Assembly: GCA_964016885.1 (NCBI GenBank)
Contig: OZ024748.1
Location: 31,496,001-31,560,000 of the forward strand
From: Eledone cirrhosa
Taxonomy: Eukaryota
Length of the DNA: 64,000 nucleotides
Direction of reading: 5' to 3'
The notes beneath the pieces were generated by a model. That model saw nothing but the letters and a program-made list of their open reading frames with translations. It was not told where the DNA came from and made no database searches. Position numbers and translations under genes: made by a program. Below, piece after piece: positions 5,385-46,850 of the stretch (the stretch's first letter is position 1; each line of letters opens with the position of its first letter).

Positions 5385-6720
5385 AATTATAATGAAATGA
5401 CAGGAGGCTGGATTTGTGTAAATCCTTGAAAGGTTTATTATACTATGATCATTTCAATGACCGGGTTCCGTATGAATCCGGTGATATCATCAGGTATTCG
5501 AAATATAATACGTGAATGTAATAGGTAAAATCCATGGGGCTGAAAATCGAGACCCGAGGGCGACCGCTATTCTGTTCCTTCACCCTCAGCCAGTCGCCCT
5601 GGAGTGACGTGGCTAAATTTTATAGTATGCTACTACCGGTCAGATGAACGAAAACAGAAAGGGATGGGAGCATAAGTTAACGTCGATCTCATGACACAAG
5701 GTAAAAGAAAGAAAGAAAGGAAGGAGAGAGAAGAAGGGGGAAGAAAGAAGAAGAGAAGCCAGGGTTAATGTCAGCTAAAAGAGGAAGGCAACTACTACTG
5801 GTCAGATATAGGCAAGCAAGAGGGGGAAGGAAGATAAGTCTGCGGGAGGAAGACAGGAGGAGGGGAGAAGAGAAGGAAGGGAAGAGAGAAGTAGAAAAGT
5901 AAGGGTTGATGGCTACAAGAAGGAAGATAGAAAGAAAGAGGGAGAAAGGTCGATATTAATGTCAGACCACAGTCAAGCCAGGAGTGGCGCGAGAAAATGT
6001 TCACAGGGACACGCATCTTAGCAGAGGTGAATATATTGGGAGTCAGTGTGTTACAGCGTTTAGACTTTTAGGATGAAGTTAAAAAAATTAATAATCAATA
6101 TTCAATATTAAAGAGGTTAGAAAATTTAAAGTTCAACAGTTTAACATTTAATTATATAATAGTTCCGATTTGTTCTGTAATTTAAAGGTACTATGTGGCG
6201 GTTAAAACACCGGCCGCGCCCCGGGCCCCATGGCGAACTAAGCCACGCCGAGTATGGGAGTTCAGTGTGAGTTATACATGCCCAGAAGTATAGGGTAGCC
6301 ATTTAGTTAATTCAGTGCAGTACAATACAGGTTATGGTCCAGTCCGTGGAGTTTCGTCAAAGTTCGGATATTCTGTGAGGGGAGTAGCAAAGGGCCAGGC
6401 GAAAGCACCGGGTAGCCAAAGTTCGAATTGTGGTTAGATATATTCAGTCCCATGCCGCTGTTGATTATTACATTTTGAAGTGCTCAACATTTCAGGAGCG
6501 TTATTTATTGGCTATAATCATAGTATAATAAACCTTTCAAGGATTTACACAAATCCAGCCTCCTGTCATTTCATTATAATATTTAACTCCGTAATAGCAC
6601 CACCAACTACAAAAACAAAGACGGTTGAACTGCTTTACGTTGAGTACTCTCTATATTATTGCATTACGATTGACCATACGGAATAGACCAGCTCTATACA
6701 GTGGTGAACCTCAAACCTGA
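5385..6720. mobile_element. Family C remnant: pseudo-LTR + purine-rich putative 3' UTR (minus) joined to an inverted pseudo-LTR piece (6517-6720, plus)
   Basis: Homology to 1660-2010; inverted arrangement typical of PLE insertions; no coding remnant seen. Confidence 0.6.
5440..5497 (-). ncRNA. Type I hammerhead ribozyme (family C, copy 2)
   Basis: Identical to 1851-1908. Confidence 0.75.
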
Positions 6721-6819
6721 ATATATAAATATATATATATATATGACATATATATATATATATATACATATATATATATATATATATATATACATATATA
6801 TATATATATATATATATAT

Positions 6820-42155: not shown

Positions 42156-45100
42156 TATTTCGTTTCTGAATTTGTTTAGCAAGATTCTTTATCTGAAATC
42201 GTGTGTTGAAACCGATATTGTTATACTTTGGGAGGGTCATGTTGCCAATAAGAAACACACGCACCAGCTGCTTTCATTTAAATTTATTATAATAAATTTA
42301 TAAATTTAGGAATTTATAAATTTCTGGTTGGTTGGTTGGTTCCACAACCAGATAGTTGTTTATATATTGTCAACATCACTACTTACAATTAAGGACAAAT
42401 TGAAAACACACACACACATAGAACAAACAACCAACCGGTAACATGTAAATAAACAAATAAATAAACGAATATAAAGACACACAGACACCCGGATGCGGCG
42501 CATGCGCACACTGAGCACACAACACACACACAGAAACAAAATGGCGTAGGATAGAACAAAGGAGAGGCACAAAAACAAAGAAAAGAATCCCCAGTCACTG
42601 AAGAGGTCACAGAATGTGTGACGAAAGAACTTTGACAATATATAAACAACTATCTGGTTGTGGAACCAACCAACCAACCAGAAATTTATAAATTTATAAA
42701 TTCCTAAATTTATTATAATAAATTGAAATGAATGCAACTGGTGCGTGTGTTTCTTATTGGCAACATGACCCTCCCAAAGTATAACAATATCGGTTTCAGC
42801 ACACGATTTCAGATAAAGAATCTTGCTAAACAAATTCAGAAACGAAATATCGTAAGCCTTAGCCAGGCTAACAAGATATTGAAAACCACCATGTTCTGTT
42901 GTCTACGAAAAACCATAACATCTCGACAACTACACTTCATAAAAGAATGTGCCTCGTCCCGAGTTTACACCAACACCATCAACACCGACGTAAGAAGATT
43001 ACAACTCACCAAAAAACAAGCAGATAGGCTAAAACGAACACTAATTCTAAACATAAAAAAGAAGATCTATAGAGAATTAAGTGATCAAGAAAAACATAAG
43101 CGTAACCTAATACAAGAAATAACTAGTATCACCATACCAAGAGAGAAACTAATATTTATAAGCCTTATACGTCCTGAAGAACAGTACATTGCTCAAGAAT
43201 ATGATTAGCACTTTAACAAAAAACTAAAAAGTGTCTTAAGCAGATAAAACTAAAACTAAATCAGGATACTGTAGAGAATACCAATAGATATCCCGACAAA
43301 ATTGACGGTATAAATATGGCCGACACCTCATTAACAGATGAGTTCAACAACAACAACAACACAAATATATACGGCAACACGGCAATAGACCCTGATGAAT
43401 TATCTGTATTACTTCTACCACCGAAATGTGCGACATTCAAGAATGTAAATATGATTAGTTGTCTGTCAGAAATAGAAAAATCATTTACAAAATTACGTTG
43501 GAGCCTCAAAAACAAAAACAAAAACAAAAGTAACAACATACGTACACACATATACAACACACATCCCAACAACAACAGACACACAGACACAAACAACAAT
43601 AACAACAACACACACACCAACAATAATATCATACTCAGAAACAACAACAACAGACACGCAGACACAAACAACAATAACAACACACACAACAATAATAACA
43701 CACACGGAGACAACAACAACAACAACACACATCAACAACAGCACACATCAACAACAACAACACACACACATTCAATGCTTCTCACCACCACAACAATCTT
43801 AACAAACACACAGACACAGAAAACAAGTAATGACAGTAGCACAGAAATCACAGAAATAAGGGAAAGTAATAGGATTAAAAGGAGAAGGGAGACTATGGAC
43901 AAAGAAAATAACCAAGACGAACCCACAGACACACAAAATAGAGTAGATAATAACAATGAGCCAGTGGAAAGAGACAAGAGTAATTATGAGAGACATAGAA
44001 ACAACCATGAGGCTGTTGGTTGAAATAGAAATAGAAACAACACAACTAACAATAACAATAGCACTAGTACACATAAAGCAGCAGCCTGGAACTCTACTTT
44101 TTATAATCCCTCCGATAAGTCGTTCGACCTGCGACGAGTCCACGCTACGACTTTACCATTTAACAAACGCACGCAATTGCCGTCGCAGGTCGATGAACAA
44201 ACAGAAGCACAATTTAGTATAGCTAAATCCGAACTTAGAAATATTATAGAACAGTATAGCAAGAAGCATAATAGAATGGAGGCCCAGCAACTGGGAGAAA
44301 AATCTGCAAATGGCTTGCGTAAGCTCATGCAGCGCTCGCGTAATGGAGAGATAGCATGCTTTCCAACAGACAAGTCTGGCAGAATGTCGGTTGACAGCCT
44401 GCCAAACTACATCCAGGCAATGCAACCCCACATCACTAACACAAGAGAGGTAACACCGCAGGAGCATGAGGATAGAGAAAAAGCCCTCAATGCCCATATG
44501 GTGATGTGGACGAATATAATGCAGCCCAACAAAAGGACTGCCAACAACTTCCAGACCTGGAACAATGACGTGCCGGCGTTGTATGGGCTTCAAAAAGACC
44601 ATAAAACGGGCAGTGACCCTGTCACCGGACCACCAACAAGACCAGTCTGTGGAGCTAACATTGCTAGTAACTACAGACTGTCCTACTTCCTCTCCCTGAT
44701 CATACGCCCCATCATTGAAATGTTCCCAGATGTATGTGACAGCACGGAGGACCTCCTCAGCAGAATCGACGAGAGTAACCGATCTAGGGACCTAACAAAC
44801 TGTATAATAGGTAGTATGGATGTTGTGTCCCTGTATCCATCTATTGACGTGGATTTTGCTGTGGAGAAATGCGTAGAAATGATCAGTGAGAGCAATGTTG
44901 AGTTCCGTGGGATTGATACCAGTGAGCTGGGACTCCTACTTAAACTTACCTATAGTAATAATTACCTAGACACATATGACCTTAGCAACCTGTGCCCTAC
45001 AAGACCAGCAAGAGGCAGACCACCTACCATTACCTCAATGGCCAAGAAAACCCACACAGATAGATGGAACGGGTGGACCAGAGCCAAACGGACACCCGAA

Positions 45101-46850
45101 AACCACGATGAACTGAAGAAAATGATTGCACATGCGGTAGGAGCCAGCATAGAACTAACCCTTAAGGAACATATGTTCAAATTTAATGGAAAAACATATG
45201 CCCAAGAGGAAGGAGCAGCCATTGGTGTTAGCATTGCAGGCGACATAGCTAACTTATTCATGGTATGGTGGGACAGTAGACTTAAACTTAAAGAACAATT
45301 AGAAGATCCCTTAACCCTGATAATGTACTCCCGCTACGTTGATGATATAAACATCGTAGTTAAAACACCCCCACTAGAGAACAGTCAGGAATTAGAGAAA
45401 TACAATGGAAAGCATCCAGCAAATAGCTAACTCCATCCACCAGAGTATTAGAGTTACTATAGACTACCCAAGCAAACACCCCAACCATCGATTACCTGTA
45501 CTAGACACAGAGCTCTGGTTAGATACCATTAATAACAAAAGAAAAAACCTCCATTCCCATTATTCCAAACCCATGACTTCCAAATATCTGATCCACCGAA
45601 ACTCAGCTGTTTCGGACCATACCAAAATCAACATACTGATTGCAGATTTGGTACGGGTGATGAGAAACGTGTCCCGCATGTGCAACCCCGAAGAACGAGA
45701 GAGACACATACAACACTTCATCCACCGTATGCAGTTCTCTGGTTACAATCAGAGAGATAAAATCAGAGTGTATAGAGGAGCCAGAACCAAATGGGAAAAA
45801 ATGGGAAATAATGACACAAATGGGACCTGCCCCTTGTATAGGAGCAAATTTTGGAATAGAATAGAAAGAACTAGGAATAAGGCTAATAGAATAAACTCAT
45901 GGTATGATAGCAATAAATACCAGAGTATAATGTTCATCGATACAACCCCTAGAGGTGAATTAGCTTACAAATTTAGAAGAGCCCTAGATAAACATAAACT
46001 CAATATTAAGATAGTAGAAAGACCAGGTACCTCCGTAAAAACACTTATTAGCAAAACATACTCTTTTCAAAGACCCCCCTGTATAGATAAGAAATGTATA
46101 ACCTGTAAAATAAGCCCCCATATTAACTGTAAAACTAGAAATGTAGTGTATAGCATAAGATGTACTGAAGGACAATGTAGAGACAAAAATATAGTGTACA
46201 TAGGTGAGACAGCTCGTAGTGTAGGGGAACGGATAAATGAACACTGGCGAGACCTTCAAGATAGTAAAGAATCATCTGTACTCTACCAACATGCTAAAGT
46301 AGTACATAAGGGAAAATTAGAGAACATAGAAATAAAAATAGAATCTACACACAGAAAAGACGCAATGTTTAGACAAATCACAGAGGCAATAAACATAAAA
46401 GAATTACAACCAAAATTAAATAGAAAATATGAGTGGAACAGCAACATCACAACTTACAATTAAGGACAAAATGAAAACACACAACCAACTGGTAACATGT
46501 AAATAAACAAATAAATAAACGAATATAAACACACACAGACACCCGGATGCGGCGCATGCGCACACTGAGCACACAACACACACACAGAAACAAAATGGCG
46601 TAGGACAGAACAAAGGAGAGGCACAAAAACAAAGAAAAGAATCCCCAGTCACTGAAGAGGTCACAGAATGTGTGACGAAAGAACTTTGACAATATATAAA
46701 CAACTATCTGGTTGTGGAACCAACCAACCAACCAGAAATTTATAAATTTATAAATTCCTAAATTTATAAATTTATTATAATAAATTGAAATGAAAGCAAC
46801 TGGTGCGTGTGTTTCTTATTGGCAACATGACCCTCCCAAAGTATAACAGT
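42156..46850 (+). mobile_element. Full-length PLE family B with direct pseudo-LTRs and an inverted 5' pseudo-LTR piece
   Basis: Direct repeats ~42371-42790 and ~46441-46848; inverted 42156-42370; hammerheads at 42593 and 46647. Confidence 0.93.
42765..46463 (+). pseudogene. Disrupted PLE B ORF (N-terminal domain, Asn/Thr/His low-complexity linker, RT, GIY-YIG)
   Basis: DELSVLLLPPK, PTDKSG, YGLQKDHK, PTRPV, SMDVVSLYPSI, QEEGAAIG, RYVDDI, LPVLD, VYSIRC..YIGETAR; stops ~43208-43245 and frameshifts ~43730-44170 and ~45400. Confidence 0.9.

Follow-up and report, generated by a model that had tools for sequence, protein, structure and literature searches.

Among the inverted arrangements of Penelope-like elements (PLEs) the head-to-head one is the most frequent (PMC3846280), and insertions are described with an inverted 5' copy, a tail of 30-40 bp that often stands at one end only, and targeting to (TA)n (PMC8557442). 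A 31-bp tail at one inverted pseudo-long terminal repeat (pLTR) and target duplications of 8-10 bp have been reported together with a proposal of self-priming, put forward as self-priming on antisense RNA for the inverted arm (PMC3846280); how the tandem and inverted structures arise is still described as undefined (PMC8557442; PMC11167929). PAc (Poseidon of Anolis) nicks and extends both target strands in vitro, starting at two internal RNA sites between which lies the tail, and has been modelled as a dimer (PMC11167929). Retrozymes, in turn, have been linked to PLEs (PMC7229834; bioRxiv 10.64898/2026.07.22.740005). Here we analyze a 64-kb window of Eledone cirrhosa (assembly GCA_964016885.1, contig OZ024748.1, positions 31,496,001 to 31,560,000 of the forward strand) in which PLEs, hammerhead repeats and one non-LTR retrotransposon form head-to-head units. 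We favor, with moderate confidence, the reading that these are genuine insertions in which both ends of a cut in (TA)n primed reverse transcription, with one start site per end in the Penelope-type families.

The window, meaning the whole stretch numbered from its first letter, has a GC content of 33% and no N, and consists of mobile elements strung together by (TA)n-type tracts: PLEs, APE-type non-LTR elements and non-coding hammerhead repeats. Junctions were checked by self-BLAST of the TA-masked window and by direct inspection of the sequence. Strand was assigned independently of the layout, from open reading frames (ORFs) for the RTE element and families A and B, and from a descriptor-based scan for type I hammerheads for families A, B, C, D, and E. 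Target-site duplications, if any, are concealed within (TA)n. An earlier note on positions 5385 to 46850 had listed eight junctions with a left arm on the minus and a right arm on the plus strand, and all eight are present in that orientation by self-BLAST, sequence, ORFs and hammerheads (C at ~6516, D at 7411/7412 and 33449/33450, RTE at ~13812, E at 21062-21066, B at ~23838 and 42371-42373, A2 at 39551/39552). To these we add four same-family inverted units, namely A1, a third D pair (7754-8493), F, and G. The Penelope-type units are as follows:

153..1432, strand inferred only: inverted unit of family F, arm ends 90 nt apart, outside the range of the earlier note.
4426..7725: D-b, a retrozyme unit; left arm minus 6845-7411, right arm plus 7412-7725, ending at the proximal site.
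5386..6720: C; the minus arm on the left (5386-6516) stops at the proximal site, the plus arm on the right (6517-6720) 140 nt beyond it, at the distal one; the two overlap by 67 nt.
7754..8493: D-e; left arm minus 7754-7810 (proximal site +3 nt), then TA, right arm plus 7930-8493 (distal site).
10346..18875: A1; the minus arm on the left (10346-11290) stops at the proximal site, the plus arm on the right (14899-18875) 88 nt beyond it, at the distal one.
19198..21882: E, a retrozyme with a 469-bp unit, of which four copies are on minus and 1.7 on plus; the arm ends are offset by 72 nt, and the junction (21062-21066) has 2-nt microhomology.
22258..24525: B 23835; the minus arm on the left (1580 nt) extends to the distal site, the plus arm on the right (688 nt) to the proximal one, which lies 60 nt before it.
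33100..34090: D-c; the minus arm on the left (33100-33450) stops at the proximal site, while the plus arm on the right (33449-34090) misses the distal one by 4-5 nt; 2-nt microhomology.
34650..35053, strand inferred only: inverted unit of family G, arm ends 128 nt apart.
35297..39923: A2; the minus arm on the left extends to the distal site, the plus arm on the right (39552-39923) to the proximal one, which lies 86 nt before it.
42159..46848: B 42370; the minus arm on the left (42159-42373) extends to the distal site, the plus arm on the right (42371-46848) to the proximal one; 3-nt microhomology.
42787..42846, plus: the B tail between the two end sites, within the first codons of the ORF.

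In every one of these 11 units the two arms end at different positions of the element, 60-140 nt apart (B 60, D 65, E 72, A 86-88, F 90, G 128, and C 140 nt). The sites are reused: both B units end at the same two nucleotides, both A units at the same two sites, and the three D units at the same two sites within 5 nt. All eight units from families with recurring sites (A twice, B twice, C, and D three times) pair one proximal with one distal site; if the ends chose independently, the chance of eight discordant units in eight would be 0.5^8 = 0.004, and for the five cleanest units (5/5), which involve no nesting or TA-bridged reading, 0.03. Either arm can be the longer one, and single copies end at either site, the proximal one in B 54190 and D 27431 and the distal one in C 1660. 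The end sites resemble TA modestly more than expected, 5 of 12 having a run of at least 4 against a background of 10%. The two fixed stop points suggest that both ends of the cut DNA began copying, and the offset ends fit a scheme in which each arm, made on its own DNA strand, uses its own start site, a pattern that they extend to retrozymes.

Several observations weigh against this reading. The ends B 46848, C 5386, and E 19198 have no extra match to the target, and the evidence comes from one 64-kb window, where no PLE is shown as partner of C, D, or E. The arms of A1 and of D-e have TA between them and could be independent neighbors; those of A1 are more diverged (41/739 nt) than the two pLTRs within one A1 arm (6/267). 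D-b depends on a nesting reading, and E, F, and G each define their sites from a single pair. In bulk, PAc showed no strand-dependent choice of start site, and its primer and RNA were not homologous (PMC11167929).

The eight junctions of the earlier note are two different phenomena, a Penelope-type layout and the twin priming of the RTE element:

11513..14847: twin-primed non-LTR element, presumably RTE; left arm minus 11513-13812, right arm plus 13813-14847, 15-bp overlap.

Its APE endonuclease and reverse transcriptase (RT) domains are observed: the left arm holds the 5' region, the endonuclease and positions 1-97 of RVT_1, and the right arm continues from RVT_1 positions 99-194 through the 3' end, which is (TAGA)n. 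The left arm breaks off in TA at exactly the point from which the right arm continues, 15 bp being present in both, and the internal priming point has a 1-nt match to TA, in a single RTE copy that leaves no second one for comparison of the junction. By analogy with L1 this anatomy is that of ordinary twin priming on one RNA. As in L1 (PMC2912911), the 5' part is inverted, the arms meet near one point of the element, and one end would have been primed at the 3' terminus and the other internally; the present unit differs from L1 in its clade and its (TA)n target, and the Penelope-type units differ in having a fixed second site and hundreds of nucleotides copied twice. In the parts of the RTE-focused literature examined, "twin priming" occurs in reference lists only.

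A single rule for all families, as the earlier note had it, merges RTE twin priming with the Penelope layout and overlooks the differing arm ends. Its statement that both 3' ends run into (TA)n stands insofar as the outer ends of all units lie in TA tracts; the RTE left arm, however, ends inside the RT and the arms of the other families end at different sites, and for D the statement is partly trivial because the D unit contains a (TA)n tract of its own. Across the window, same-family adjacent inverted arms are head to head in 12 cases (strand set independently in 10) and tail to tail in one, at D 7725/7754, where the ends of two head-to-head units abut. We give this divergent-versus-convergent count little weight, since it is biased: in target-primed insertion each 3' end is bound to adjoin the target.

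The proposed course of events is modelled on PAc and L1. A Penelope-type RT-endonuclease would nick both strands at (TA)n, for families A, B, C, D, and E and probably also for F and G. Of the two DNA ends, one would then prime at the proximal start site of the RNA and its partner at the distal site, which lies 60-140 nt downstream, giving the end positions that we observe; each cDNA would extend toward the element's 5' end, stopping often near the hammerhead or a hairpin, and the two would be joined through the short microhomologies seen at the junctions. The short arms begin at the predicted hammerhead cut in B 42370 and 6, 10, and 55 nt upstream of it in C, D-b, and E, respectively. A common stretch of up to ~740 nt (688 nt in B 23835) is copied in both arms, so the template must have been offered twice, or read twice with strand displacement; an offer made twice could come from a tandem or circular RNA, or from two RNAs of one source lineage.

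More tentatively, and with somewhat less than even confidence, this may be a programmed form of twin priming, in which one dimeric ribonucleoprotein assigns two fixed RNA start sites, one per target strand, so that the tail and the head-to-head layout would be marks of a single reaction that also writes the retrozymes D and E from circular or concatemeric RNA. The pairing of one site with each arm would connect the in vitro result (both strands, two start sites) with the genomic layout; it predicts an anticorrelation between the start sites used on the two strands of the same target and, if true, would be a direct genomic footprint of animal retrozymes using Penelope machinery.

The junctions bear on the chief alternative, which is priming from a single end with the inverted arm made by fold-back or self-priming, either by a template switch to the new cDNA or on antisense RNA (PMC3846280). 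Containment of the short arm in the long one in B, A2, and D-b would suit it, as would the F junction, where 27 nt (1001-1027) repeat 930-955 in inverted orientation and form a third segment resembling a brief fold-back. So would the arms of B 23835, whose differences are neutral and mostly private, as a single template would give: when compared with two further B copies, 15 of the 17 are private and 2 shared, and 7 of the 9 changed codons are non-synonymous, one of them a stop. These differences look like neutral decay that followed a single insertion, and for B 23835, on which the idea was tried, they do not support an origin of the unit from two source elements. The arms of C and of the RTE element, however, each hold sequence that the other lacks, which excludes a simple fold-back on the first cDNA. 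Arm starts differ by ~126 nt in D-b, 142 in A2, 261 in B 42370, 839 in B 23835, and ~1000 in C, so that the palindrome expected of self-priming was not found at the junctions examined, G with its 38-nt spacer coming nearest to a symmetric one. A folded-back arm would, moreover, have no reason to halt at the second fixed site every time, and we regard this alternative as unlikely.

Two independent insertions in the same TA tract, in opposite orientation by chance, are improbable. The tracts are insertion hot spots with nested elements, the arms of A1 and D-e are separated by TA, and two different Hydra-type PLEs (48684-50630 and 51006-54190) lie head to head across TA at 50630/51006; against this, ten units have direct junctions without TA, and the partners are always of the same family and near relatives (the arms of A2 differ at 10/368 nt). 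In six junctions readable against another copy the microhomology is 3, 2, 2, 1, 0, and 0-3 nt. As a separate observation, the plus-strand PLE of 51006-54190 continues directly, without TA, into a B copy at 52543, making it a chimera of two PLE families.

Priming from both ends with later joining of the cDNAs had been proposed in the earlier note, and remains the best reading, given the non-nested C and RTE arms, the microhomology of 0-3 nt and the extension of both strands by PAc. What we do not retain is its cause, namely that both ends prime at the element's 3' end through the self-complementarity of (TA)n under one rule for all families. The outer ends in TA tracts, the somewhat TA-like end sites and the very high density of head-to-head units in the window speak for that version, whereas in none of the 12 units do both arms end at the same position, the RTE left arm ends in mid-RT with its 1-nt match to TA, the flanking tracts are polarized rather than genuinely symmetric, and inverted pLTRs with 8-10-bp target duplications have been described outside (TA)n (PMC3846280); we give it little credence. 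(TA)n is a known target and may raise the rate of head-to-head units, but its self-complementarity is not required for them.

Tract direction, read from G- or C-type interruptions, is the same on both flanks in all 10 scorable units of the 12 and mirrored in none, although these are not ten independent tests, as neighbors share tracts and 18 of the 27 polarized tracts are G-type. The idea that the TA tracts were made as part of each arm was rejected, since the flanks are not mirrored. AT-rich inverted repeats are hard to assemble (PMC8557442), but a fold-back read, an assembly artefact or an inverted duplication after insertion is very unlikely given asymmetric junctions, arms that differ at 0.5-5.5% of sites, unmirrored flanks, ends that recur at the same nucleotide in separate units, and a B 23835 junction that recurs at ~60064 in a copy differing at 5/1241 nt. 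Of 20 sequencing runs listed in a search with B, 17 contain part of that stretch and none is an RNA run, which is no evidence for or against the junctions.

Family A is, by its motifs, a Hydra-type PLE. Hydra-clade elements, known from aquatic invertebrates, have a DKT motif, a CxCX5C linker, CxxC and CxH motifs, a C-terminal GIY-YIG-type endonuclease, and a single ORF (PMC8557442). Family A agrees in DKT, linker, CxxC/CxH, endonuclease, and single ORF; the motifs in the A2 ORF are DKTN, CNCRIKNKC, YFGST, CNLC, and CLH, with RWK present as RWT. A Pfam profile search of A2 gave no match. Two further Hydra-clade traits, a canonical hammerhead in the pLTR and insertion at (TA)n, are also present, with hammerhead cores at 10443, 18687, 35488, and 39418, an 8-bp stem I, and all A ends in TA. 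The right arm of A1 reads pLTR-ORF-pLTR and is frameshifted, and the RTE element occupies the TA tract between the A1 arms. The left arm of A2 is a full-length element with an open ORF at 36749-39214 (stop to stop). The A2 arms differ from A1 at 60-72 sites over the alignment in which they differ from each other at ten, and the excess of differences between them is mostly due to one cluster in a palindrome: at 39743-39794 of the right arm a quasi-palindrome was made more perfect, probably by a local template switch.

Family B is, to judge by sequence, a Neptune-like PLE of the Neptune/Nematis type, the two being left unseparated, with a CIDKKCITC linker, YIGET, and matches to GIY-YIG (E=1.2e-4) and RVT_1 (E=5e-4). 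Both arms of B 23835 contain the ORF end and the pLTR; the right arm of B 42370 runs pLTR, tail, broken ORF, pLTR. A1, A2, B 42370, and B 23835 share a partial pLTR tandem, an inverted 5' copy and a tail at one end, the marks of insertion of PLEs with an endonuclease (EN+). The short arm of B 42370 (42159-42373; compare 42633), with its 5' end at the predicted hammerhead cut, may record cleavage in vivo, in this one case. The B ORF has an asparagine-rich, (AAC)n-like stretch at 43512-43826, reminiscent of N-rich inserts in Adineta Penelopes (PMC3846280). A segment with the B junction and the following D array (22854-25865) is duplicated at 59080-62007, and the module of B end plus D occurs again at 62006 and 63117.

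Families D and E are made of tandem non-coding units (~500-540 bp in D, 469 bp in E), each with a predicted type I hammerhead core, and from this anatomy they are tandem hammerhead repeats of the non-LTR retrozyme kind; that D and E are retrotransposed, as claimed earlier, is supported and accords with what has been published on retrozymes. Among the best 150 of 334 Rfam matches, almost all TA-repeat noise, a single hammerhead appears, Hammerhead_HH9 in E at E=1.4e-4, so that Rfam support for hammerheads is limited to one E copy and lies below the gathering score. In D-b, the left-arm end piece 4426-4555, at the distal site, would have been displaced by insertion of K (a repeat described below) and C into the internal TA tract of D; the tracts around C share the polarity of the minus-strand D tract, which supports this nesting. 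C has hammerhead cores at 5493 and 1904, both minus, the latter in the single copy 1660-2013 (minus) that ends at the distal site; no coding remnant and, in the window, no tandem of C was found. In F and G a canonical hammerhead and a coding remnant were looked for and neither was found. The D/E hammerhead motif had 0 matches in metagenome contigs, and a Hydra-type RT alignment against metagenome and viral contigs gave 184 pattern matches each, 0 of them confirmed.

D and E are alike around the hammerhead (for example D 26925-27311 and E 21287-21725) and in a hairpin directly ahead of the distal end site, and the end sites of B, D, and E share a short TATCG motif. The 5' ends of D at 24941, 33450, 61109, 62749, and 63811 all stop at one small GC hairpin that lies upstream of the hammerhead; the first two are independent, and the last three are duplicates of 24941.

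Elsewhere in the window, two further APE/RT-type non-LTR elements (27843-32779 and 40036-41834) are single and uninverted, the second with a PHD-finger match 3' of the RT. K is a GC-richer non-coding repeat in two copies (4556-5156 and 47261-47788) with an identical start base after TA-type tracts, and an AT-rich satellite at 56149-58905, with a period of ~290 bp and many internal inversions, is followed by a truncated E copy.

No paper that we found ties one start site to each arm, although most subscription literature lay outside the search and figures or supplements of the cited papers may show it; head-to-head products go unmentioned in the main text on PAc (PMC11167929), and head-to-head arrays with two-site ends of the PLE type were not found in the retrozyme passages searched (PMC7229834; bioRxiv 10.64898/2026.07.22.740005). 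The head-to-head geometry, the one-sided tail and the (TA)n targeting of PLEs are already published and not new here; what the window contributes is a useful and testable refinement of a known anatomy, namely the two-site pairing together with long tails and an extension to retrozymes. Compared with typical insertions of EN+ PLEs (PMC3846280; PMC8557442), the tails at this locus measure 60-140 nt rather than 30-40, junctions are asymmetric and not palindromic, the inverted arm can be the longer one, and one site per arm is counted across families. With PAc (PMC11167929) these units share extension of both strands, two internal start sites bounding a tail, and an AT-rich target, and they differ in the short TA-like matches enriched at the end sites. 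D and E resemble animal non-LTR retrozymes (PMC7229834; bioRxiv 10.64898/2026.07.22.740005), for which an origin from PLEs has been proposed, in their non-coding tandem units of ~470-540 bp with a type I hammerhead in each, and D differs from them in carrying (TA)n inside the unit.

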